Assembly (NCBI GenBank): GCA_943912255.1
Contig: CALTTP010000001.1
Location: 127,356-191,355, forward strand
Direction of reading: 5' to 3'
From: an uncultured Peptoniphilaceae bacterium
GTDB taxonomy: Bacteria; Bacillota; Clostridia; Tissierellales; Peptoniphilaceae
Length of the DNA: 64,000 bases
Shown here: positions 10,603 to 58,420 of the stretch, piece by piece
Layout of the letters: every line of letters starts with the position of its first letter
Numbering within the stretch: the first letter of the stretch is position 1
Notes under the pieces: model-generated
What the model was told of the DNA's origin: nothing
What the model saw: the letters and a program-made list of their open reading frames with translations, nothing else
Databases searched by the model: none
Made by a program: the position numbers and the translations under genes

Positions 10603-11097
10603 ATGACTTTTTGTTATGAAAAGGATAAGGGTAAGTTTGATGACTTTGTGAAATTTATTGATGATCATAAAGATCAACCTGGTGCTGTAATGCCAGTCTT
10701 ACAAGAAGCTCAAAAGGTATTTGGATATATTCCAGAACCTATTGTGGACCTTATGGCTTTAAAACTTGGGAAGCCTTCCAGTGAAATATATGGAGTGGCA
10801 ACTTTCTATTCTCAGTTTACTTTCAAGCCAAGGGGAAAACACGAAATCTGCGTTTGCTTGGGAACTGCTTGTTATGTAAAAGGTGCAGATAAACTGTTAA
10901 ATGACTTTTGTGAGGCTTTAGAAGTTAAACCTGGAGAAACTACAGAAGATGGAGAATTTTCCGTTATTGAGACTAGATGTGTAGGTGAATGTGGAATTGC
11001 ACCTGTTGTCACATTAGATGGGGAAAATATTGGAAATGTAAAACCAGATATGGTTCATAAGATAATCTATGATGCCCAAGGAGGAGAAGATGAATAG
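10603..11097 (+). CDS. hydC: [FeFe]-hydrogenase small subunit, NuoE-like [2Fe-2S] (HydC/HndA)
   Basis: Thioredoxin-like 2Fe-2S motif C-x4-C...C-x3-C (CVCLGTACY...CVGECGIAP). ATG 10603 has RBS GGGAGG 6 nt upstream; the track starts at a GTG at 10579. Confidence 0.85.
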   Translation: MTFCYEKDKGKFDDFVKFIDDHKDQPGAVMPVLQEAQKVFGYIPEPIVDLMALKLGKPSSEIYGVATFYSQFTFKPRGKHEICVCLGTACYVKGADKLLNDFCEALEVKPGETTEDGEFSVIETRCVGECGIAPVVTLDGENIGNVKPDMVHKIIYDAQGGEDE

Positions 11098-12667
11098 ACA
11101 GGAATTGTTGAAGATTAAGGAAAGCACTTCTCCTGTTATGATGAATAGATTAAAGGAAGAAGAGTTTGTAATAGATGGAGAAAACATTTGCCCAAAGGGT
11201 AAGTTTTATGAAAGCCAAACTAGATTGGTATTAAGGAATTGTGATGTTATAGACCCAGACTCCATTGAAGAGTATATTGCAAGGGATGGTTATTTTGCAT
11301 TAGAGAAAGTCTTACATAGCCTGGACCCAAAAGAAGTTATAGACATAGTTAAAGACTCTGGTTTAAGGGGAAGAGGAGGAGCAGGATTTCCTACAGGAAT
11401 AAAATGGGAATCTGCTTTTGTACAGGAAAAAGATCAAAAATACGTTATATGTAATGCTGATGAAGGGGACCCAGGTGCCTTTATGGACAGGTCCGTTTTA
11501 GAAAAAGACCCTCATAGCGTACTGGAAGGAATGGCGATTTGTGGTAAGGCAGTAGGTGCATCAAGGGGATTCATCTACGTTAGAGCTGAATATCCTAAGG
11601 CGGTTAAGAGATTGCTCCATGCTATAGAAGAAGCAGAAAAGTACAATCTACTAGGGGACAATATTATGGGAACAGAATTTTCCTTTAAGATCGAACTTCG
11701 TCTTGGAGCGGGAGCCTTTGTATGTGGTGAAGGTACTGCATTGATGGAATCCATTGAAGGTAAGAGAGGTATGCCTAGGAATAAGGAATTTAGAACTACT
11801 ACTAAAGGTCTATGGGGCCAGCCTACAGTTATTAATAATGTTGAAACCTTCGCAAATATTCCTCAAATTTTAAATAGAGGTTCAGATTGGTTTAAGTCCA
11901 TAGGTACTGAAAAGTCTGCGGGAACTAAGGTTTTTGCCTTAGTTGGTAAAGTTAATAACTCAGGTTTGGTTGAAGTTCCCATGGGAACCACTATTAGAGA
12001 AATAGTCTATGACATTGGGGATGGTATTCAAAATGGAAAGAAGGCAAAGGCGGTACAAACAGGAGGACCATCAGGCGGTTGTATTCCTACAGATTTATTT
12101 GATACAGGATGCGACTTTGAATCCTTAAAGGCCATTGGATCTATCATGGGATCTGGTGGTATGGTTGTAATGGATGAAGACGACTGTATGGTGGATGTGT
12201 CCCGATTCTTCTTAGAGTTCTCCGTGGATGAATCCTGTGGTAAATGTACGCCATGTAGAATTGGAAACAAGAGACTTTTAGAGATGTTAGATGATATTAC
12301 TCAAGGTAGAGGGACTAAGGAAACAGTGGAAAAACTGGAAGAGCTATCCAATATAGTTGCATCTACCAGTCTATGTGGTTTGGGACAATCTAGCCCTAAC
12401 CCAATTCTATCTACAATAAAATACTTCCCTGATGAATACTATGCCCATGTTGGAGAAGAAAAGACCTGCCCTGCTAAGAAATGTAAGGGTGTACTTAAGT
12501 ACTTTATCACTGATAAATGTATTGGATGTACTAAATGTGCAAGGATATGTCCTGTGGAATGTATTTCAGGAGAAGTTAGGAAAAGACATGTTATCAATCA
12601 AGATGAATGTATTAAATGTGGCCAATGTAAGGATGCTTGTCCTGTTGGTACAATTGTCTTAGATTAG
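11090..12667 (+). CDS. hydB: [FeFe]-hydrogenase flavoprotein subunit, NuoF-like (HydB/HndC), NAD(H)/FMN-binding with Fe-S clusters
   Basis: NuoF-type motifs GRGGAGFPTG and GEGTALMESIEGKRG. C-terminal 2x[4Fe-4S] ferredoxin domain (CIGCTKCARICP, CIKCGQCKDACP). ATG 11090 has RBS GGAGGAG and overlaps the hydC stop. Confidence 0.9.
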   Translation: MNRQELLKIKESTSPVMMNRLKEEEFVIDGENICPKGKFYESQTRLVLRNCDVIDPDSIEEYIARDGYFALEKVLHSLDPKEVIDIVKDSGLRGRGGAGFPTGIKWESAFVQEKDQKYVICNADEGDPGAFMDRSVLEKDPHSVLEGMAICGKAVGASRGFIYVRAEYPKAVKRLLHAIEEAEKYNLLGDNIMGTEFSFKIELRLGAGAFVCGEGTALMESIEGKRGMPRNKEFRTTTKGLWGQPTVINNVETFANIPQILNRGSDWFKSIGTEKSAGTKVFALVGKVNNSGLVEVPMGTTIREIVYDIGDGIQNGKKAKAVQTGGPSGGCIPTDLFDTGCDFESLKAIGSIMGSGGMVVMDEDDCMVDVSRFFLEFSVDESCGKCTPCRIGNKRLLEMLDDITQGRGTKETVEKLEELSNIVASTSLCGLGQSSPNPILSTIKYFPDEYYAHVGEEKTCPAKKCKGVLKYFITDKCIGCTKCARICPVECISGEVRKRHVINQDECIKCGQCKDACPVGTIVLD

Positions 12668-19054: not shown

Positions 19055-19477
19055 ATGCATTTAATTTTAACTTTATCAATTGTAGTGGTTTTGACCACAA
19101 TAGGTTCGGGTGTCTATCTATTGAAGAACAACAGAGACAAGTCAAAAAATAAAATTAGAAAGGCCCTAGGGGTAAATCTTTTGAGTTTTATTCCCCTTAT
19201 AATCATGGCTATGGTGATTATATCTCCAAATTCAAGTTTTGCCGCTACAGATTCAGGAGCTGCAGCTAATGGAATGGGAATGCTAGCAGCTGCTCTTTCT
19301 ACTGGTTTTGCCACAATTGGTACAGGATATGCCGTTGGTGTTGTAGGTTCTGCAGCTTTAGGAGCTGTTTCTGAGGATGATTCTCTTTTAGGTAAGACTT
19401 TGATTTATGTAGGACTTGCAGAGGGTATTGCAATTTATGGTCTTGTAATCTCAATCATGATATTGGGAAGATTATAA
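19055..19477 (+). CDS. ntpK: V-type ATP synthase subunit K (proteolipid c) with unusual N-terminal extension
   Basis: C-terminal hairpin GMLAAALSTGFATIGTGYAVG...LAEGIAIYGLV with the conserved ion-binding Glu. Strong RBS GGAGG. The N-terminal 60 aa add two hydrophobic segments and an AxA-like site (SFAAT). Confidence 0.8.
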   Translation: MHLILTLSIVVVLTTIGSGVYLLKNNRDKSKNKIRKALGVNLLSFIPLIIMAMVIISPNSSFAATDSGAAANGMGMLAAALSTGFATIGTGYAVGVVGSAALGAVSEDDSLLGKTLIYVGLAEGIAIYGLVISIMILGRL

Positions 19478-49018: not shown

Positions 49019-49104
49019 AATTATAGGATATTAACAATTCAATTGGTTCAATAAAAAGAAAAATTTACTATATGCTATAATATTTTGGAGGAGTGGAAAT
49101 TGTT

Positions 49105-50682
49105 ATGAACTTACTTATTATTACTTTGGTGCTTTTATTGGCCCTTGTGGCCCATAGGTTTTCAGATAAATTTGGACTACCGTCTCTTTTGTTGTTTATA
49201 CTTTTAGGAATGTCTTTTAATCTCTTGGGATATAATTTTTCTGACCTTGAACTTTCTGACAAGATTGCAAAGGTCTCCTTGATGATAATTATGTTCTATG
49301 GTGGTTTTGGAACCAACTGGACCATGGCTAAGCCGGTTTCTAAGCCTGCTATAGTTCTTTCTAGTCTAGGGGTTGTGGTTACAGCTTTACTTACTGGAAT
49401 TTTTTGTTATTTTATCTTAAAATTTGATTTTTATGAGGCCATGTTGCTTGGTTCTGTAGTGGGTTCCACAGATTATGCATCGGTTTCTTCTATCTTAGTT
49501 TCTAAAAACTTGAATTTAAAATACAATACTGCACCTCTTCTTGAACTGGAAAGTGGTTCCAATGACCCGGCTGCCTATACTATGACCATGGTTTTTATGT
49601 CCTTAATCGCAGGGGGAGATATTTCTGTGCCCTTAGTCATATTTAAACAGGTGATTTTTGGAATAGGACTCGGCTTTATAATAGGTTTTATGGTTTTAAA
49701 GATAATCAATGTGGACACATTACAAGATGATGGTTTATTGGTGGTTTTATTTGCAGCGGTGATGTTTGGTACTTTTAGTGTTACGGAGTTAATTGGAGGT
49801 AATGGATATTTGGCTTTATATATATTGGGGATTTATATAGGGAATAAACAGTTTGTAGGCAAGAGGGATATTGTATTCTTTTATGATGGCCTTTCTTCTT
49901 TAGTACAAATAGGACTGTTCTTTCTTTTAGGATTCTTGTCCAATATTGAAAAGTTGTTACTGGTTCTTCCAATATCTTTTATCATTATGTTGGCTATGGC
50001 CATTGTAATTAGACCAGTAGCCGTTTTTGCGCTTATGATTCCCTTTAAATTAGAAAAAAATCAATTGGGAATCATTTCTTTGGCAGGGCTAAGGGGAGCT
50101 GCTGCCATTGCCTTTGCAATTATGGTTGTAAATAGCAAAGTGCCTCTTTCCATAGATATTTTTCATATAGTATTTGGGATTTGTCTTTTTTCATCCTTTA
50201 TTCAAGGTTCCATTATGCCCATTGGAACTAGGAAGCTTTCCATGTTAGAACCTAATGATACGGTTTTAAAGACTTTTAACTATTATCAAGATAAGTCGGA
50301 TCTAGGTTTTATTCAAACGGAGATAAAACCAGGAAATAGGTGGATAGGAAAACCCATTAAGGATTTAACCCATACTTTCAATATAATAGTGGCTAAAATT
50401 GAAAGACATGGAGAAACAATAGTTGCCAAGGGAAACACCATAATAGAAGAGGGAGATATTGTGGTTTTAGGAGGAGAAACCCACTTTGACAGGTCTGGAC
50501 ATAACTTAACGGAGATAACCCTGTCTAAGGAGCATAGATGGGCTAATAAAAGGGTGTCTGAAATTGAAATGGGGGATAAAGAACTTATTATTATGCTACA
50601 GAGAAAAGAAGGGGGAGTTATTGTACCTACTGGAGATACGGTATTAAATCCAGAGGATAAAATCGTGATAATTAAAGAATAG
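49105..50682 (+). CDS. Monovalent cation/H+ antiporter (CPA1, NhaP-type) with C-terminal TrkA-C (RCK_C) domain
   Basis: About 12 TM in the N-terminal 400 aa, plus a roughly 120-aa soluble C-terminal regulatory domain. ATG 49105 follows RBS GGAGGAG. Confidence 0.8.
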   Translation: MNLLIITLVLLLALVAHRFSDKFGLPSLLLFILLGMSFNLLGYNFSDLELSDKIAKVSLMIIMFYGGFGTNWTMAKPVSKPAIVLSSLGVVVTALLTGIFCYFILKFDFYEAMLLGSVVGSTDYASVSSILVSKNLNLKYNTAPLLELESGSNDPAAYTMTMVFMSLIAGGDISVPLVIFKQVIFGIGLGFIIGFMVLKIINVDTLQDDGLLVVLFAAVMFGTFSVTELIGGNGYLALYILGIYIGNKQFVGKRDIVFFYDGLSSLVQIGLFFLLGFLSNIEKLLLVLPISFIIMLAMAIVIRPVAVFALMIPFKLEKNQLGIISLAGLRGAAAIAFAIMVVNSKVPLSIDIFHIVFGICLFSSFIQGSIMPIGTRKLSMLEPNDTVLKTFNYYQDKSDLGFIQTEIKPGNRWIGKPIKDLTHTFNIIVAKIERHGETIVAKGNTIIEEGDIVVLGGETHFDRSGHNLTEITLSKEHRWANKRVSEIEMGDKELIIMLQRKEGGVIVPTGDTVLNPEDKIVIIKE

Positions 50683-50705: not shown

Positions 50706-50730
50706 AAGTCCAGAAAAAATTTCTGGACTT
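50706..50730. terminator. Bidirectional terminator hairpin between the antiporter and the Rnf/Nqr-like operon
   Basis: Perfect 11-bp stem aagtccagaaa/tttctggactt, with T-rich flanks on both strands. Confidence 0.65.
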
Positions 50731-50758: not shown

Positions 50759-51874
50759 TTAGAACTCGTCAAAGAAAATTCGTTCTGTTGGAACTTTCTT
50801 TTCATTTAATGATTTTACAATTCCCTCTATCATCTTTGGACTACCACATAGATATGCAGTATAGGTTGTGTCTTCATTTACATATTTATCAATAGAATTG
50901 TTAACACGTCCTGTGTCACCTTCCCAATTGTCTTCAGGAGTAGTTCTTGAAAGGGTAGGCATGAATTTAAAATCATAAAGATCTTTTTCAAATTGTTTCA
51001 TTTCATCAACTAGGAAAAGATCGGTAGGAGTTCTAGCACCAAAGTAGAATCTTGTCTTTTTCTTAATATCATTGTCTCTCATATGATTTAAGATGGATCT
51101 AATAGGTGCAAAACCTGTTCCAGCTGCTATAAGCAGTATCTCTTCACTATCGTCGTCATGATAGTAGAAGTCTCCATAAGGCCCGTTTATTAGTACCTTA
51201 TCTCCAACTTCTAACACTTTGTGAACAAAGGTAGAACAAATTCCCATGGTATATCCTATTAAGAACTCTACGTGTTTTGTATCTTTAATGGAAGATGCCA
51301 CGGAATAAGCTCTAAACACTTCTTCGTCACTACCTTCATAATCTTCGCCAGATGAGTATGGAACCGTCTTAATCTGCATAAATTGACCTGGTTTAAAGTT
51401 TATTGTCTCACCTTCAGGTAGTTCAAATCTCAGTCGAACTATCTTGTCGGTCATAGGTTCCTTTTCCACTAAGGTCATTTCGTATTCCTTTACATTGAAC
51501 AATTCTTCAGGAATTTGAATATGCATATCAGACTTTACTTTAACTTGGCAAGAAAGTCTTACACTGTCTCCTAATTCTTCTGGGCTTAGCCAAGGTTTTT
51601 CAGTGGCAAGGACTGGTCCTGCTCCGTCTAAGACCTTAACTTTACAATAACCGCAAGATCCCTTTCCTCCACATGCAGAAGGAATGAATATCTTTTGTGC
51701 TACCAAGGAAGAAAGTAGACTTTGTCCACCTTCCACTTCGTATTCTTTTTCATCGTTTATTATTATTTTTACTTCGCCATAATCGGCAATATATTTGTCT
51801 GCCAGGGTGAGTAGTAGGGCAATAAGAACTGAAATACCTGTTACTATCCCTGTAGAAATTAAAATCATCTTCAT
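50759..51874 (-). CDS. NqrF-like subunit: membrane-anchored [2Fe-2S] ferredoxin with FAD/NAD(H)-binding oxidoreductase domain
   Basis: N-terminal TM helix. Plant-type 2Fe-2S motif CGGKGSCGYCKV...C. FAD motif RAYSVAS. NAD motif AAGTGFAP. C-terminal YLCGSPKM. Last gene of the minus-strand operon. Confidence 0.85.
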   Translation of the reverse strand: MKMILISTGIVTGISVLIALLLTLADKYIADYGEVKIIINDEKEYEVEGGQSLLSSLVAQKIFIPSACGGKGSCGYCKVKVLDGAGPVLATEKPWLSPEELGDSVRLSCQVKVKSDMHIQIPEELFNVKEYEMTLVEKEPMTDKIVRLRFELPEGETINFKPGQFMQIKTVPYSSGEDYEGSDEEVFRAYSVASSIKDTKHVEFLIGYTMGICSTFVHKVLEVGDKVLINGPYGDFYYHDDDSEEILLIAAGTGFAPIRSILNHMRDNDIKKKTRFYFGARTPTDLFLVDEMKQFEKDLYDFKFMPTLSRTTPEDNWEGDTGRVNNSIDKYVNEDTTYTAYLCGSPKMIEGIVKSLNEKKVPTERIFFDEF

Positions 51875-51882
51875 ATTATCAC

Positions 51883-52467
51883 CTATGATATGGAAACTAT
51901 TCCTGAGAAACCTATAAAGGCAAGAGCCATTATACCTGTTATTATCAGGGTAATAGGGGCGCCTCTAAGGCCTGCTGGAAGAGAGTTCTCGTTGATTCTG
52001 GATCGGATACCTGACATGGAGATTATTGCTAATGCCCAACCTAAACCTGAACCTAATCCAAAGAATAGAGATTGCATAAAATTATATTCTCTGATTACCA
52101 TGAAAAGGGAAACCCCAAGTATGGCACAGTTTACGGTTATTAGGGGTAGGAAAATTCCTAGGGCATAGTACAAATTCTCAACATATTTTTCAAGTATCAT
52201 TTCAAGTAATTGTACAAAGGCTGCAATTACAATGATAAATACGATAAATCTCAAGTATTCTAGTCCAAAATATTCAAGTAATTGATAAACAAAATAATTT
52301 AATACAGTAGTAACAGTTAAAACAAATGTTACTGCCACTCCTAGTCCTGTTGCAGTCTCAACTTCTTTACTGACGGCAATAAATGAACACATTCCCAAGA
52401 AGTTTGAAAATATCATATTGGAAGTAAAGATTGAGGCAAAGAAAATTACTAATGGATGGATGGTCAT
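51883..52467 (-). CDS. RnfA/NqrE-family membrane subunit
   Basis: 194 aa, 6 TM. The N-terminus IFFASIFTSNMIFSNFLGMCSFIAVS is typical of RnfA/NqrE. Confidence 0.85.
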   Translation of the reverse strand: MTIHPLVIFFASIFTSNMIFSNFLGMCSFIAVSKEVETATGLGVAVTFVLTVTTVLNYFVYQLLEYFGLEYLRFIVFIIVIAAFVQLLEMILEKYVENLYYALGIFLPLITVNCAILGVSLFMVIREYNFMQSLFFGLGSGLGWALAIISMSGIRSRINENSLPAGLRGAPITLIITGIMALAFIGFSGIVSIS

Positions 52468-53075
52468 TACTTTTTCACCTCTTCCTTCTTATTAACTAGG
52501 TTGTATACTATCCACATAATAATAGGTAGTATGAAGAATGCTCCTGGAGGCATTACCATTAATGTCCATGGAACAAATCCTTCAGGCATTATTCTAAAGC
52601 CAAAAACTGAACCAAATCCCAATATTTCTCTAATAATGGACACTGCCAGTAGAACCAAGGTATAACCGATTCCTGCTGCAAATCCATCTACTAAAGAACT
52701 TAGAGGAGGATTGGAAATAGCATAGGCTTCTGCTCTACCCATTATGATACAGTTGGTTATAATCAAACCTACATAGGGTCCAAGAGTCTTACTCATGGAA
52801 GGCATATAGGCCTTTAGAAATATATCAACTATTATTACGAAGAAGGATATTATAAATACTTGAACCACCATTCTGATATGTTTAGGTGTAATATCCTTTA
52901 ACAACGAAATAAAGAAAGAGGATAGGGCAGTAGTAAAGGTAAGTGCCAAACCCATTATAAGGGAGTTTAAGGCAAGGTTTGTCACCGCCAAAGCAGAGCA
53001 AATTCCGATAACTTGTATAAGAACCGGGTTATCTGTGATAATTCCGGCTTTTATAATCTTCTTATATTTGTTCAT
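52467..53075 (-). CDS. RnfE/NqrD-family membrane subunit
   Basis: 202 aa. DNPVLIQVIGICSALAVT is typical of RnfE/NqrD. Confidence 0.85.
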   Translation of the reverse strand: MNKYKKIIKAGIITDNPVLIQVIGICSALAVTNLALNSLIMGLALTFTTALSSFFISLLKDITPKHIRMVVQVFIISFFVIIVDIFLKAYMPSMSKTLGPYVGLIITNCIIMGRAEAYAISNPPLSSLVDGFAAGIGYTLVLLAVSIIREILGFGSVFGFRIMPEGFVPWTLMVMPPGAFFILPIIMWIVYNLVNKKEEVKK

Positions 53076-53683
53076 TAATTAGACCCTCCTTCTTTTTGTA
53101 TAAATTCCTTTAAGTTTTTATTTACCATATCGGTTACAAAAGTGGAAGTTTGAGTTGCACCTGCAATGGCATCTATATTACCACCTTGGGCAGGTTTATT
53201 TACAACATATTTATCTCCTTGAGGATTTGAGATATCAATTCCTCTATATTGTTCCTTATAAGGAGATTCAGAAATTCTTCCTCCAAGGCCTGGAGTTTCA
53301 CTTTGACTGATAAATTCAATTCCCGTGGTTTCAGTAAAGTCCTTATTAACACCTAAATATCCTGTAATTGTTCCCCAAAGGCCAGGGCCTACAAAGGGTA
53401 CAGCATATCCTTGAACTTCTCCATCCTTATTGTATACGAAGTATTTTGTATCCTTATAGTCTTTTTCTTCAATATTTTCAGAAAAAACTTTGTCAATCTC
53501 TTCAGGATTAGATGAATCTACTGGAATATCAAATACATAGAGTATCTTATCCTTTAACTCAATCTCTGAATTGAATTCGACAATTGGCGTTGTTACCTTA
53601 TTGATAAAAGCTAAGATAAACACAAGAACTGCTGATAAAATTAGCATAAAGACAATAGGATACATAACTGATTTCTTCTTCAT
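53075..53683 (-). CDS. RnfG/NqrC-family FMN-binding subunit
   Basis: 202 aa with an N-terminal TM anchor. FMN-attachment context SETPGLGG...AIAGATQTS. The size is RnfG-like rather than NqrC-like. Confidence 0.8.
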   Translation of the reverse strand: MKKKSVMYPIVFMLILSAVLVFILAFINKVTTPIVEFNSEIELKDKILYVFDIPVDSSNPEEIDKVFSENIEEKDYKDTKYFVYNKDGEVQGYAVPFVGPGLWGTITGYLGVNKDFTETTGIEFISQSETPGLGGRISESPYKEQYRGIDISNPQGDKYVVNKPAQGGNIDAIAGATQTSTFVTDMVNKNLKEFIQKEGGSN

Positions 53684-54660
53684 TAATTTGTCTCCTTTGC
53701 TACTTTATTATTCTTTGCCTGTTTTCTTTTTCTAACAACATAATCCATTATAGGCCCAAAGATATTACCTATTAGAATTGCAAACATCATACCTTCAGAG
53801 AAAAGTGCAAACCCTCTAATTATTACAGATACTGTTCCTATGATAAGTCCATAAATAAATTTTGCAGGTCTTGTCTTTGGTGCAGAAATAGGATCTGTAG
53901 CCATAAAGACAGCACCTAGTAAAAATCCTCCTGATAGCATTGAGAATATTGGATTAGGAACAGATTCAACTCCCATAAAGTTAAAAATTAAGGTCATTGC
54001 TGTTAAACCCGCTACACATGATACCATTATTTCCCAAGAAGCTACCTTCTTGTAAATGATATAAATAGCGCCAATAAGTATAAGAAGTTTTGATGTTTCA
54101 CCAATTGCTCCTGGAATATTTCCTAAGAACAAATCCATGTAATTTGTGATTTGTCCACCATTTCTAAATGCAAGCATTGGTGTGGCTGTTGTTACTTGGT
54201 CGATCATAGGATTCATCCATTTATTCAAAGATCCTATTCCACCAAGAACTGCTTCGTTCCAATTGATAGTCAATGGTTGAGGGAAGTTAACATATACAAA
54301 AACCCTACCTACAAGAGCTGGGTTGAATACGTTTTTACCAAACCCACCAAAGACTGCTTTACCAAAAAATATTGCAAAGGCAATACCTAGTGCTGACATC
54401 CAAAAAGGTATGGATACCGGCAATGTCATAGTATAGAGAACAGCAGAGATAATTGCGGCTTCAGAAATTTTCTTTCTATTGTAAATCTTATTTTCCGTAA
54501 TAAACTCAATAAGACAGGCTACAATAATATTGAAAACCGTCAGACCTAATACCCTCCAACCAAATGCGTAGATTGAAAAGAGCAAGATAGGTAAGAGAGC
54601 AATTAATACTGTCCTCATCATTTTTTGTTTCATAAAATATTTTTCATATAATGAAACCAT
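53683..54660 (-). CDS. RnfD/NqrB-family membrane subunit (RnfD-like size)
   Basis: 325 aa. Motifs GKNVFNPALVGRVF and VTTATPMLAF (FMN-Thr site). First gene of the operon; nothing upstream on this strand except a 150-bp promoter region. Confidence 0.85.
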   Translation of the reverse strand: MVSLYEKYFMKQKMMRTVLIALLPILLFSIYAFGWRVLGLTVFNIIVACLIEFITENKIYNRKKISEAAIISAVLYTMTLPVSIPFWMSALGIAFAIFFGKAVFGGFGKNVFNPALVGRVFVYVNFPQPLTINWNEAVLGGIGSLNKWMNPMIDQVTTATPMLAFRNGGQITNYMDLFLGNIPGAIGETSKLLILIGAIYIIYKKVASWEIMVSCVAGLTAMTLIFNFMGVESVPNPIFSMLSGGFLLGAVFMATDPISAPKTRPAKFIYGLIIGTVSVIIRGFALFSEGMMFAILIGNIFGPIMDYVVRKRKQAKNNKVAKETN

Positions 54661-54810
54661 TAACTCACCCCCGTTAATATGATTATAACACTTTTAGAAT
54701 TTAAAATTCATATTAATTTGGTTTTGTTACAAAAAAACCATAATAATCACATTATTTTTTAGGGTATAATGAAACTGTGAATAAAAAATGATAACTTAAG
54801 TGGAGGAATT

Positions 54811-55128
54811 ATGAATTATATTAAAGTAGAAATATTTGTACCCTTTAATTCATCTGAGGACTTAATGAAAGAGATTAACAAACTGGGAGTATTAAAAGAA
54901 AAAAATTATGATTTTTGTTTTTCTGAAACCAAAGTCAAGGGTCATTTCAGACCTTTAAAAGGTTCAAATCCGACTATTGGAGATATAGATAAAATTGAAG
55001 TTGTAGATGAGAGCAAGCTGGAATTTAGAATTTTAGAGGAGGATTTACAAAAAGTGCATTTATGTATATTGGAAAATCATCCCTATGAAGTTCCAGTAGT
55101 AAATTATATTAGATTGGTTGAGGTATAA
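54811..55128 (+). CDS. Small CutA-like / PII-fold protein (possible divalent-cation tolerance protein family)
   Basis: 105 aa. The C-terminal HPYEVPVVNYIRL resembles the CutA HPYEVPE(I/V) motif. The N-terminal part does not match the canonical CutA pattern well. Confidence 0.35.
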   Translation: MNYIKVEIFVPFNSSEDLMKEINKLGVLKEKNYDFCFSETKVKGHFRPLKGSNPTIGDIDKIEVVDESKLEFRILEEDLQKVHLCILENHPYEVPVVNYIRLVEV

Positions 55129-55129
55129 A

Positions 55130-58100
55130 ATGAAAATTAAAATAAAGGACAATTACAGTTTTGATGAGATAAAAAACTTGCTATTAGGTTCCTATTGTCT
55201 AGGGGTTTTACAAGAGGATGAAAAATTTCCTATAACATCTAAAGATGAGGGATTAAATTTTTTTGAAAGCTTAGATATATTGGAAAATTATTTAAATATG
55301 GATGGTGAAAATGACGGCAAATCTATAAAAGAAGATAGAGACTTTGATTATATGCCACCTTTTTCTAGGAAACCAGAAACTTTGGAAAACTTATTTACTC
55401 CTGGATTTTTAATGGAGGACTCTAATGGTGATGGACTTTGTGACGATGCTAACTTTTCTATAGTGGTAAAAGATTTAAGTCCTTTTATGGTGGAAGCCCT
55501 ATCAAATCTTATGTATAGATTTGGGTTAGAGTCAACAGGAGGAACTTTACCATCTGTTGTGGAAGAAGAAAATAATAAAAATTTTGTTAAATTCGTAAAA
55601 GATGATAGAATTTATATTGAATTTTTCAAAAATGACCCTAAACAAATTTTAGTCCATGGAGATGGAGAAGAACTTGTAAAATTTACTACTTTGTTTTGTG
55701 AGAACTTCCCTTTTATAAACAATGGCATGGACTTGTTCGACTATATTAAACAATTGGAAGATATGTTTTCTTTACAGACTTCAGAAGGTCAATATGTGTT
55801 TTTAAATTCTACTAAGATCGATGAAGATGGCTCCGACTTTCTAAATTCCATAGGTGTTCCCTGTGATAATTTCTACAAAGATGACTTTTGTTATTTTGAA
55901 CCAGATTTTCTAGATAGATTTCCTGAAGTAAAAAGGGAATTCACCAATATGAAAATCCAATCCTATAAGGAACCTAAGGAGATTTGGTCCAGGGACTTCC
56001 CGATTGAATGGGAAGTTGAGGATTTCTTAAAGGTATTTGAAAAAGGTCTATCATCTATAAAGGAATCAGATGAAGTGGAAGTCTTTGGAGTTTTAAGTGA
56101 AGATGACCTGGTCTTAGATGATTTGAAAAGGAAAATTGAGAACAAGCTTGATTTTTTGAATTCTAGTCCAGAAATTAATCTTGTCTCTTCATATAAACAG
56201 GGACTTTCATATTTTATGCGACATATTTATCCAAGGATTAAAGAAAAAAATATTGAAGAAATCCTGATTAAATTTAATCCTTTTTTACAGCATGGACAAA
56301 AATTCCAAGATGTAGAGGAAGGCAGTGTTCCCAGCTATTCCATTAAAGAAGGGGATAGTCAAAGATTCTTAGACATGCCCATTAGATTCTTACAAGAACT
56401 TTATCCTATTGACGATATCATAGAAAAAACTTTAGGTTTAGATAGAGATAAAGTGTGTTTTAGTATGAATGAGGATGTTGAAGACTGGGATTACCAATTT
56501 ATTATTAAAGAATTTGGTGGTAGAGAAGAGTCGTTTAAATACTCAGTGGAATTATCGGAAAAACCGTATTTAGAGGAATATCCAAATTTAGGACTGGTTC
56601 ATCCCAGTACAGGTCATATTGCCATTAAGGTAAATGGAAAATGCCTAATTTCAGAAAACATACAAACAGATATGGAAAGAATTTGGGATATCTACCAAAA
56701 GAATGTACTGCCAGAAGTTTTGGAAGTCCTTGAAAAATCCAGTGAACTAAAGGAGTCAGACCAGCCTCTTTTCAACTGTCTAGACCTTAGGGTAGAGGCT
56801 TCTGAACCAGATATGGATTTGGATATTAGACAGGATAGAATCTCCTCTTTAGAGGGATTGCATCAAGATCTATATTTTAGTGGCTTGGATTATTTTTCTC
56901 AGTTTGGTTTAAAAAGAGATAAGGGTAATTTGGACAGCCCTGGACTGATTTTACCAAGGATTAAAAAGGGTAATGGGAAACCTAGCTTTAAAGCAATACT
57001 ATATAAAAACAAGGGCGAGTCTCCTGGAATATTTGAAAAACAAACACCTAGGATATTAACTTCCAATGGTGAAAAGGCGTTTTTTAAACTGGATAAAATT
57101 GGATACGATGCTGATAAAGTCAAAGTTTATATAGATACAAATCTTCACTATACTTTAATCGAATCCCTGATAGACTTGGTTAAGTTTAATAAAATCGAAA
57201 TATATCCATTTTTAAGAAGACCATATAATGAGAATTTAGAGATTGTCTTTAAAAATGAAAACGGAGAATTTCCATTAGAACAACCTATTGTAGGGGATGA
57301 GAATCCTATAGACATAGAAGATATCAATCTTTATGAGGATGATATCATTGACTATAACAAATATATGGAGATTATACAAAAATTAAAAAGGGTCAGAAGA
57401 ATTCAAGTAGTAGAGAGGGGCAGATCCTATCTAGGTAGATCTATTTATTCTGTAGAATTTGTTCAGCCCTTTGTATCTAGAAGAAACCAAGTGATGAACA
57501 AACCTACGATTTTTATAAATAATAGACATCATGCCAATGAGGTTTCTTCCACAAATGAAGCTTTTATGCTAATAAAAAAATTGTTAGTGGATGAAAAGTA
57601 TAAAGACATAAAGGATGAAATAAATTTAATAATCTTGCCTTTAGAAAATGTAGACGGAGCACAGATACATTATGAGCTACAAAAGGAAAATCCAAAGTGG
57701 AAGCTTCATGTGTCTAGGTTCAACTCCTTAGGCAAGGAGTTTTTTAGAGATTGTTTTAATGAAGACACAATTCACAGTGAAGCTCTTGCTTTTACAAGGA
57801 TATATCATCGTTATTTACCGGATATGGTAGTGGATAATCATGGGGTTCCCAGTCATGAATGGGATCAACAATTTTCTGGTTATTCCTCACCTTCCTATAG
57901 AGGGTTTTGGTTGCCTAGAAGTTTGATGTATGGATATTTTTGGTATGTAAAAGGGGATAAGTTTTCTAATAACTTCTATATGAACAAAGTCATAGAAAAA
58001 GCCATTGCTGAGGGTTTTGAAAAGGATGAAGAATTTACAAAATCCAACTTGGAATGGAAGGACAGATTTGAAAAATACGCTCATAGATATATGCCAAATA

Positions 58101-58420
58101 TGTTTCCAGCAGAATATTATAAAAATATGATTCATTACTGGATAGGCTTTGACCATGATATTAATCATCGTTATGTATCCATAAAGTATCCTAATATTAC
58201 CTCAGTAGCCTATACTTCTGAAGTTGCTGATGAGACTGCTCAAGGAGAGTATTTAAATAAATGTGCAAGGGCCCATCTACTTCATGATGAAATCATAATA
58301 GATTTAATCAGAGAACAGGAAGTTAAAACTGTTAAAAAATTTAAAAATAATGGCAATGCCGTTATTATATACAATAAAAGGCTTAGGCCTTTAATTAAGG
58401 AGGAGAAATGGAATATTTAA
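55130..58420 (+). CDS. Large cytoplasmic multidomain protein with C-terminal M14 (zinc carboxypeptidase)-like domain
   Basis: About 1096 aa from ATG 55130 (RBS GAGGT). No signal peptide. M14-like zinc-ligand pattern: HHANE (57526-57540), LENVDG, DNHG (57833-57844) and a downstream TSEVADE acidic motif. The N-terminal roughly 750 aa have no recognisable motif. Confidence 0.55.
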   Translation: MKIKIKDNYSFDEIKNLLLGSYCLGVLQEDEKFPITSKDEGLNFFESLDILENYLNMDGENDGKSIKEDRDFDYMPPFSRKPETLENLFTPGFLMEDSNGDGLCDDANFSIVVKDLSPFMVEALSNLMYRFGLESTGGTLPSVVEEENNKNFVKFVKDDRIYIEFFKNDPKQILVHGDGEELVKFTTLFCENFPFINNGMDLFDYIKQLEDMFSLQTSEGQYVFLNSTKIDEDGSDFLNSIGVPCDNFYKDDFCYFEPDFLDRFPEVKREFTNMKIQSYKEPKEIWSRDFPIEWEVEDFLKVFEKGLSSIKESDEVEVFGVLSEDDLVLDDLKRKIENKLDFLNSSPEINLVSSYKQGLSYFMRHIYPRIKEKNIEEILIKFNPFLQHGQKFQDVEEGSVPSYSIKEGDSQRFLDMPIRFLQELYPIDDIIEKTLGLDRDKVCFSMNEDVEDWDYQFIIKEFGGREESFKYSVELSEKPYLEEYPNLGLVHPSTGHIAIKVNGKCLISENIQTDMERIWDIYQKNVLPEVLEVLEKSSELKESDQPLFNCLDLRVEASEPDMDLDIRQDRISSLEGLHQDLYFSGLDYFSQFGLKRDKGNLDSPGLILPRIKKGNGKPSFKAILYKNKGESPGIFEKQTPRILTSNGEKAFFKLDKIGYDADKVKVYIDTNLHYTLIESLIDLVKFNKIEIYPFLRRPYNENLEIVFKNENGEFPLEQPIVGDENPIDIEDINLYEDDIIDYNKYMEIIQKLKRVRRIQVVERGRSYLGRSIYSVEFVQPFVSRRNQVMNKPTIFINNRHHANEVSSTNEAFMLIKKLLVDEKYKDIKDEINLIILPLENVDGAQIHYELQKENPKWKLHVSRFNSLGKEFFRDCFNEDTIHSEALAFTRIYHRYLPDMVVDNHGVPSHEWDQQFSGYSSPSYRGFWLPRSLMYGYFWYVKGDKFSNNFYMNKVIEKAIAEGFEKDEEFTKSNLEWKDRFEKYAHRYMPNMFPAEYYKNMIHYWIGFDHDINHRYVSIKYPNITSVAYTSEVADETAQGEYLNKCARAHLLHDEIIIDLIREQEVKTVKKFKNNGNAVIIYNKRLRPLIKEEKWNI

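Follow-up and report, generated by a model that had tools for sequence, protein, structure and literature searches.

What kind of enzyme is encoded by an RNF/NQR-type operon that contains neither an RnfC- or NqrA-type gene nor an RnfB gene? The question is raised by a stretch of 64,000 nucleotides from an uncultured Peptoniphilaceae bacterium (assembly GCA_943912255.1, contig CALTTP010000001.1, positions 127,356 to 191,355 of the forward strand), here called the window, in which five tightly packed genes on the minus strand (54660-50759) follow one another in the order D-G-E-A-F (letters as for the RNF subunits, with an NqrF-type F; Table 1). An ancient design of redox pump is known in two forms, RNF and NQR, of which NQR is a target of antibiotics. 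How peptide-fermenting Tissierellia, Thermotogota, syntrophs and others re-oxidise NADH and build up ion gradients is incompletely understood. The third layout described here is found in hundreds of anaerobe species. It is less a surprise than a tractable problem in the bioenergetics of anaerobes. We think it rather likely that the operon encodes a complete, selected five-subunit branch of the Rnf/Nqr family, "A-less" (i.e. without NqrA) and with a short F, which would act as an ion-translocating NADH dehydrogenase, probably with a non-quinone acceptor.

The A-less layout is already known from genome papers, and the window is a further member of this uncharacterised form. A-less nqrBCDEF clusters were described in the genomes of Thermotoga thermarum and T. 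lettingae (Pseudothermotoga lettingae) (PMC4148951), in 2018 in C. ultunense and Alkaliphilus metalliredigens (PMC5924567), and in Ca. Izimaplasma ZiA1 (PMC6256511) and Miniphocaeibacter halophilus (PMC9558581). All four papers leave the acceptor open and report that these organisms have, in addition, a complete rnf operon, and the whole-genome analyses of these relatives found no nqrA (PMC4148951, PMC5924567). The main evolutionary study of NQR did not take in the A-less operons (PMC4014512). The gene order and content of the published clusters are the same as in the window, and the locus of C. ultunense DSM 10521 (L016), whose subunits are each 53-72% identical to those of the window, falls into the same clade (100% support); the host differs, being a Lagierella-like member of the Peptoniphilaceae from human skin metagenomes. 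In other words, this kind of cluster is a genomic observation known from genes alone and not a defined enzyme. What we add is a single clade definition, the joint loss of the C/A subunit and of the N-terminal segment of D, a constraint on the electron path as far as riboflavin, and six-gene operons with RnfC and NqrF that fit a transition from Rnf to Nqr.

Subunits and cofactor ligands of the five-gene operon

An earlier note on this DNA, made from the sequence alone, had described five open reading frames (ORFs), the first RnfD-sized and the last of the NqrF type, with about 150 bp of DNA upstream and with no gene for RnfC, NqrA or RnfB among them; the ORF check agrees in coordinates and sizes, and the domain searches agree in subunit types. 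In the Pfam searches NQR2_RnfD_RnfE (PF03116, 309 bits) is the sole domain of D, which is unfused. G has an N-terminal membrane anchor and an extracytoplasmic FMN_bind domain (PF04205; FMN, flavin mononucleotide), E and A both match Rnf-Nqr (PF02508), and F carries a transmembrane anchor followed by Fer2, FAD_binding_6 and NAD_binding_1.

By the curated NCBIfam models every subunit lies between Rnf and Nqr. D passes the rnfD model (TIGR01946; 251 bits, cutoff 207) and stays below the cutoff of NqrB (250 bits, cutoff 414), of which only profile positions 122-400 are matched. E is just below the cutoff of NqrD (233 bits, cutoff 235) and passes that of the RsxE subfamily (187 bits, cutoff 184). 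G is below both nqrC (99 bits, cutoff 144) and rnfG (83 bits, cutoff 102), as is A for nqrE (227 bits, cutoff 248) and rnfA (222 bits, cutoff 229); the best model for F, nqrF, gives 277.5 bits (cutoff 295). Public annotation is split likewise, with D called RnfD and F called NqrF in the same genomes.

The five subunits have retained all cofactor ligands. Four cysteines, C26 and C109 of E and C27 and C114 of A, are the ligands of the intramembrane 2Fe-2S cluster; they are kept across the clade and correspond to RnfE C25/C108 and RnfA C25/C113 of A. woodii (PMC11889175). The flavinylation site of G is T177 within the motif DAIAGAT, which is likewise kept across the clade. In D the FMN is attached at T160 and the riboflavin ligands are N113 and D256, equivalent in a residue-by-residue alignment to T156, N123 and D249 of A. 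woodii RnfD (PMC11889175); E52 is also conserved. Among the 65 D subunits of the clade N113 is without exception and T160 is found in 63; where the window has D256, 49 of the proteins have Asp and 16 have Glu.

The F subunit contains the FAD (flavin adenine dinucleotide) motif RAYS (188-191), the NAD motif GTGFAP (252-257) and the cysteines of a 2Fe-2S cluster (C68-x5-C74-x2-C77...C109). The earlier note had recognised all three elements, and is to be corrected in the spacing of the first two cysteines, which it gave as C-x4-C. The alignment with canonical NqrF shows that GxGxAP is kept and that a GAR[ST] motif, looked at with regard to NADH versus NADPH specificity, is common to both. F would presumably be specific for NADH rather than NADPH.

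The operon is intact and under strong purifying selection. Compared with the closest, 95%-identical relative, the ratio of non-synonymous to synonymous substitution rates (dN/dS) is 0.008-0.033 for all five genes. The identical D protein, in the same gene order, occurs on 23 independent public contigs, one of them 336 kb long and from a human skin metagenome. The earlier note had allowed for an rnfC, nqrA or rnfB gene just beyond the operon in a better assembly. This is not so; since the boundaries are the same on 23 contigs, a better assembly would not add a neighbouring rnfC or nqrA.

Missing partner genes and the N-terminus of D

No homologue of RnfC, NqrA or RnfB was found in the 64 kb window, either by blastp of the ORFs or by tblastn of the DNA; the sole matches were to the HydB gene (11069-12667), in its NuoF-like and 4Fe-4S domains. 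The same window contains neither apbE nor nqrM, and in a tblastn search of the related loci apbE was near only two of them.

Besides these genes, a part of a protein is missing. In the alignment D is devoid of the ~50-90-residue N-terminal extension of canonical NqrB, which is present in 6/6 six-gene relatives, as well as of an NQR-specific loop and of the G140-G141 pair of NqrB. A P-H motif before the first transmembrane helix (TM1) is found in none of the 65 five-gene D subunits, in all six of the six-gene forms, and in 2/3 RNF and 2/3 NQR references. An AlphaFold2 model of D (pLDDT, predicted local distance difference test, 77.5) covers RnfD fully (TMt 0.78-0.80) and NqrB partly (TMt 0.58-0.70). 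F in turn is shorter than canonical NqrF by two insertions of ~26 and ~9 residues, and the six-gene forms share this short F.

The N-terminus of D is relevant to the acceptor. The quinone/inhibitor pocket of NQR is built by the extra N-terminal helices of NqrB (PMC12174285, section 16; PMC11889175); NqrA itself is free of cofactors and has been assigned no function, the quinone being bound by NqrB (PMC12174285, PMC11889175). The description of NqrA as the quinone-binding subunit in the earlier note is therefore outdated, and its conclusion that a quinone site is missing survives because the pocket-forming helices of NqrB are missing from D too. On the alignments, the C/A subunit appears to have been lost together with the very segment of D that builds the quinone pocket in NQR.

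Distribution of the five-gene arrangement

A relative of the short F subunit is present in at least 587 species-level genomes. With one genome per species, the best 80 of these were mapped and a plasmid locus of Ilyobacter polytropus (L081) was added, which gives 81 loci. The order D-G-E-A-F without a C/A gene, and with at least 1.5 kb of upstream sequence in view, was seen in 55 of the 81 loci, i.e. the five-gene form is conserved in related taxa. Nine further loci have the same order with too little upstream sequence to judge, 11 are cut by contig ends or have one subunit below the score threshold, and in 6 the operon is immediately preceded by an additional RnfC/NqrA-like gene. Among the hosts of the five-gene form are Tissierellia, Peptostreptococcales, Thermotogota (Kosmotogaceae), Fusobacteriota, Lentisphaerota, Planctomycetota, Spirochaetota and deltaproteobacteria; on the Ilyobacter plasmid D lies downstream of an rRNA operon.

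Within ±10 kb of the 55 five-gene loci, tblastn detected no RnfC, NqrA or RnfB. The gene upstream of D is on the opposite strand in most loci. The genes that abut the operon code for CvfB, PPIase, an ABC ATPase, MGS, RelA/SpoT, Ogt, a response regulator, chorismate synthase, a polyprenyl synthetase, a peroxiredoxin and others; one 150-aa ORF recurs and is restricted to non-Firmicutes, and nothing else recurs across the clade.

Two related Clostridia metagenome-assembled genomes (MAGs) have, 120-136 nt upstream of D and on the same strand, a gene for a protein of 421-425 aa (L026:5816-7093, L032:5827-7092), in which two 4Fe-4S motifs, an [FeFe]-hydrogenase-like region and a C-terminal CxxCxxxxC can be seen by eye. 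As a candidate for a general partner this gene was rejected, being restricted to these two close relatives. Two further loci were noted. The large replicon of Vibrio sp. THAF191d (L086:4560-5801) has a solitary NqrB-like ORF of 413 aa with 67% identity to Klebsiella NqrB and with no other nqr gene within 5 kb. Subdoligranulum variabile (L089:5047-7513) has a very divergent cluster of D, E and A only, with 26-33% identity to the subunits of the window or the references and with no nearby match for G, F, B or C.

Phylogeny

A neighbour-joining tree was calculated from the concatenated D, G, E and A proteins (906 columns, 100 bootstraps), with RNF references from Fusobacterium, E. coli and Gemmatirosa and NQR references from Prevotella, Klebsiella and Ruegeria, all taken from annotated records. 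Three separate groups, each with a bootstrap value of 100%, are formed by RNF, by canonical NQR and by a five-gene clade of 64 taxa, the window among them. The five-gene operons come out as one well-supported clade, which is neither canonical RNF nor canonical NQR. In a joint tree of the paralogues A and E the window falls with the F-bearing systems in both halves. The earlier note had doubted that this is an ordinary Nqr, and the result bears it out, i.e. the operon does not cluster with ordinary NqrBCDEF and stands in a clade of its own.

The six loci with an extra gene are of two kinds. In four of them (L062:279-5802, L066:4705-11059, L067:4045-9678 and L068:5494-11059) an RnfC-like gene is combined with D-G-E-A and a short NqrF, and in the remaining two (L074:5576-11083 and L076:5577-11026) the operon groups with canonical NQR (73%). 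The hosts include Planctomycetota, Spirochaetota, a Tissierellales MAG and others. According to Pfam, the C subunits of L062 and L066 contain RnfC_N, a Nuo51-type FMN-binding domain and a 4Fe-4S dicluster; the "A" subunit of L076 is NqrA-like (NQRA_SLBB, NQRA_2nd), yet keeps a 4Fe-4S dicluster. L062, L067 and L068 form a group (99%) with a five-gene locus of Acholeplasma (L072), and when the tree is rooted with RNF this group and L066 are basal to the F-bearing systems (71% for the wider group including L066).

A series from RNF to RnfC with a short F, to an NqrA-like subunit with Fe-S, and on to canonical NQR is plausible from these gene contents. The earlier note had offered the five-gene form as an evolutionary intermediate. 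Judged by subunit content and tree position, the six-gene operons with RnfC/NqrA-like and NqrF subunits are the better Rnf-to-Nqr intermediates, and the operon of the window is not the intermediate itself. The simplest view of the five-gene clade is that it branched off sideways and that its C/A subunit and the N-terminal segment of its D disappeared together.

We note that the complexes of L062, L066, L067 and L068 would have two nicotinamide-type modules and no ferredoxin module; the RnfC-like six-gene complexes might be an ion-coupled transhydrogenase or an Rnf-to-Nqr intermediate. A further observation concerns the Acholeplasmataceae, where the five-gene operons (L072:791-1723 from an Acholeplasma MAG, and the related L069, L073 and L080) group with the basal six-gene forms. 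These probably lost C independently. The D subunit of L072 has a gap at the expected flavinylation motif.

Comparison with known systems

Compared with the Na+-NQR of V. cholerae (7xk3, 8a1t), the window complex has the same NqrF-type input module for NADH, FAD and 2Fe-2S, the intramembrane 2Fe-2S cluster, the two covalent FMNs, the riboflavin ligands and the gene order B-C-D-E-F. It differs in that NqrA is absent and no NqrM is nearby, that D has no ~90-residue N-terminal extension with the quinone/korormicin pocket and no NQR-specific loop, that F is without the two insertions, and in its separate position in the tree. D and F share 32-37% identity with their canonical NQR counterparts, G shares 28-34%, E 41-48% and A ~51-55%.

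The likeness to RNF (A. woodii 9eri, C. tetanomorphum 7zc6) lies in the membrane core and in D, which has the size and the fold of RnfD and a flavinylation motif, VTTATP, identical to that of clostridial RnfD. Here the differences are that NqrF takes the place of RnfB, so that the input would be NADH rather than ferredoxin, that RnfC is absent from the operon, so that there would be no NAD+-reducing output, and that D is without the P-H segment before TM1; the RNF references stand apart at 100% bootstrap. The six-gene hybrids have the same membrane core and a short NqrF of 41-45% identity to that of the window, but they keep the C/A subunit and an NqrB-type N-terminal extension of D. The two-subunit NQR/RNF-like systems of Actinobacteria and the candidate phyla radiation (Meheust et al. 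2021, PMC8238504; PMC10979944) are also partial, have an NAD(P)H-type input and are without RnfC, NqrA or RnfB. In these, however, D is fused to an NAD-binding domain and has lost the flavinylation Thr, and A/E are missing, whereas the operon of the window has an unfused D with a conserved T160, and has A and E as well.

Proposed function and alternative explanations

In the mechanism that we propose, NADH would give up its electrons to the FAD of F, which is tethered to the membrane; one at a time, these would pass through the 2Fe-2S cluster of F to the 2Fe-2S cluster that A and E hold within the membrane. From there they would cross to the covalent FMN of G on the outer face, and return to the cytoplasmic side via the covalent FMN and then the riboflavin of D. 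This loop would drive the export of Na+ (or H+), as in RNF and NQR, and the acceptor would be an oxidant reduced at, or close to, the exposed riboflavin of D. In the five proteins one can recognise every component and ligand of this path, i.e. NADH/FAD (F), 2Fe-2S (F), 2Fe-2S (A/E), FMN (G), FMN (D) and riboflavin (D), and the path up to riboflavin is strongly constrained. Because the FMN and riboflavin ligands of D are strictly conserved, we argue that the electrons return to the cytoplasmic side. Forward flow from NADH and the coupled export of Na+ or H+ are presumed. The acceptor would not be NAD+ reached through RnfC, since RnfC is absent, and probably not a quinone bound in the manner of NQR either, since the pocket-forming helices of NqrB are absent from D; whatever we say about the acceptor of the five-gene complex is inferred in this way. 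An ion-pumping NADH-dependent oxidoreductase with an unknown acceptor, as the earlier note had put it, still describes the operon best.

Several points weigh against this reading. Ion pumping, like the specificity for NADH, is an extrapolation from what NQR and RNF do. We found no biochemical work on the five-gene form in the literature, and no candidate for the acceptor emerged. When the flanking ORFs of the 81 loci were clustered and the abutting genes were searched with Pfam, no gene beyond the five was conserved beside the operon. The host is covered by 64 kb as regards a C/A-like partner, apbE, menaquinone genes and an rnf operon. The phylogeny was made by a simple distance method with three RNF and three NQR references, and its deep branching is weak (53-73%). 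Finally, menaquinone could bind D without any need of the NqrB helices.

Other explanations of the same operon have to be considered. One is that the complex exports electrons outward, as a one-way conduit from cytoplasmic NADH to the outer-face FMN of G and on to acceptors outside the cell or in the periplasm (flavins, metal chelates or flavinylated reductases, for instance), with D serving mainly as a scaffold or ion path. It agrees with F being the single cytoplasmic redox module, with the lack of a cytoplasmic output module and with the extracytoplasmic position of the FMN domain of G; moreover, other NQR/RNF-like systems that are partial have been suggested to work in one direction (PMC8238504, PMC10979944), and some hosts of the operon are named as metal reducers, namely Geosporobacter ferrireducens, Thermotalea metallivorans and, from PMC5924567, A. 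metalliredigens. However, the FMN threonine and both riboflavin ligands of D are essentially invariant, which would not be expected without a return through D, the partial systems of PMC8238504 are built differently (D fused to an NAD domain, Thr lost), and no extracellular reductase, cytochrome or FMN_bind protein is conserved in the flanks of the mapped loci, so that we regard outward export as rather unlikely. Also unlikely, in our view, is a minimal NADH:menaquinone reductase, i.e. an NQR function without NqrA and with the quinone on D, or with nqrA encoded elsewhere. The scores of G, E, A and F, which are best on Nqr models though just below the cutoffs, speak for it, and some hosts of the clade, namely deltaproteobacteria and Planctomycetota, belong to menaquinone-making groups; Thermotogae, on the other hand, are generally regarded as quinone-free. 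That NqrA is cofactor-less and functionally unassigned and that quinone binds NqrB (PMC12174285, PMC11889175) would make an NQR without NqrA conceivable, but the G140-G141 pair of NqrB is absent from D, the five-gene clade is apart from canonical NQR with 100% bootstrap, and no nqrA was found in four described relatives, Thermotogae among them, whose whole genomes were analysed (PMC4148951, PMC5924567), nor in the window or the surroundings (±10 kb) of the 55 loci.

A borrowed output module seems very improbable to us. Here D would dock a separately encoded RnfC-like protein, either the RnfC of a co-resident rnf operon or an electron-transfer protein of the PrdC type, and so link the oxidation of NADH to another cytoplasmic reductase. 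D is indeed RnfD-sized and passes the cutoff of the rnfD model, the described relatives all carry a full rnf operon too (PMC4148951, PMC5924567, PMC9558581, PMC6256511), and stand-alone RnfC homologues such as PrdC exist (NCBIfam TIGR04481). Nevertheless, the D/B subunits of our data set that have a C/A partner all keep the N-terminal segment before TM1, mostly with the P-H motif, which is missing from 65/65 five-gene D subunits; an RnfC partner would create a short circuit from NADH to NAD+, there is no RnfC-like gene near any of the 55 loci, and the clade includes phyla without Stickland fermentation. As to a decaying remnant or an assembly artefact of a six-gene nqr/rnf operon, the idea could appeal to the scores just below the NCBIfam cutoffs, from which D (rnfD) and E (RsxE subfamily) are exceptions. 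It is effectively refuted by the low dN/dS values, by the 55 loci in as many species-level genomes and by the identical arrangement on 23 contigs, and all ligands are intact.

A self-sufficient ion-translocating NADH dehydrogenase would have consequences beyond this locus. The A-less, short-F complexes may constitute a third functional class of the family, namely ion-pumping NADH dehydrogenases with an acceptor that is neither NAD+/ferredoxin nor an NQR-bound quinone, a generalisation that we put forward tentatively and with some doubt. If it is true, many "purely fermentative" anaerobes, including Peptoniphilaceae of human skin and gut, would gain an unrecognised respiratory-type energy-conserving step, and together with the six-gene forms that combine RnfC and NqrF there would be living intermediates for revising how NQR arose from RNF.

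Operon boundaries and neighbouring genes

The features of the operon are collected in Table 1. At the D/G, G/E and E/A junctions the genes overlap by TAATG, which indicates translational coupling; A and F are separated by 8 nt with a GGTGA ribosome-binding site.

Table 1. Features of the five-gene operon in the 64 kb window
Feature	Position	Strand	Basis or remark
D subunit, RnfD/NqrB family, 325 aa	53683-54660	minus	ORF and Pfam
G subunit, RnfG/NqrC family, 202 aa	53075-53683	minus	ORF and Pfam
E subunit, RnfE/NqrD family, 202 aa	52467-53075	minus	ORF and Pfam
A subunit, RnfA/NqrE family, 194 aa	51883-52467	minus	ORF and Pfam
F subunit, "short NqrF", 371 aa	50759-51874	minus	ORF and Pfam
Putative promoter/leader region, from D to the divergent 105-aa ORF	54661..54810	minus	read from sequence
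Putative hairpin terminator, 11-bp stem followed by a T tract	50706..50730	minus	29 nt past the stop codon of F

Upstream of D there are 150 bp, followed by a divergent 105-aa ORF. This interval contains a strong ribosome-binding site, GGGGGTGAG, at 54672-54664 and a TG-extended -10 element, TGTTATAAT, at 54690-54682, and would thus hold the promoter. A consensus promoter scan did not single out the TG-extended -10, and promoter-like matches in the region do not exceed the shuffled expectation, so that the promoter is read from the sequence only.

Downstream of F the hairpin has a perfect stem with T tracts on both strands and lies between two convergent genes, the partner of F across it being a K+/H+ antiporter gene (49093-50682). 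The F and antiporter genes would share it as a terminator acting in both directions. As the region has no more terminator-like sites than shuffled sequence would give, this function is deduced from its position.

The genome closest to the host is a Lagierella sp. MAG (Peptoniphilaceae, Tissierellia), and nothing usable turned up in the literature on host quinones or expression. Elsewhere in the window there are NrdDG, a HydABC-type group A6 [FeFe] hydrogenase, a V-type ATPase and arginine deiminase; the first three had been named in the earlier note (NrdDG as class III ribonucleotide reductase) and are all confirmed. The K (proteolipid) subunit of the V-type ATPase (19055-19477) is only 140 aa long with a long N-terminal extension, and its carboxylate motif, LAEGIAIYG, is without the Ser/Thr that usually follows the Glu in Na+-binding rings, which makes it ambiguous as a clue to the ion specificity.

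On the other side of the promoter region, the divergent 105-aa ORF (54811-55128) belongs to no family and is overlapped by a gene for a protein of 1100 aa (55118-58420). The sole recognisable part of this protein is an M14 carboxypeptidase domain at residues 760-869, which is preceded by ~750 unassigned N-terminal residues. The pair adjoins the operon on independent contigs too.

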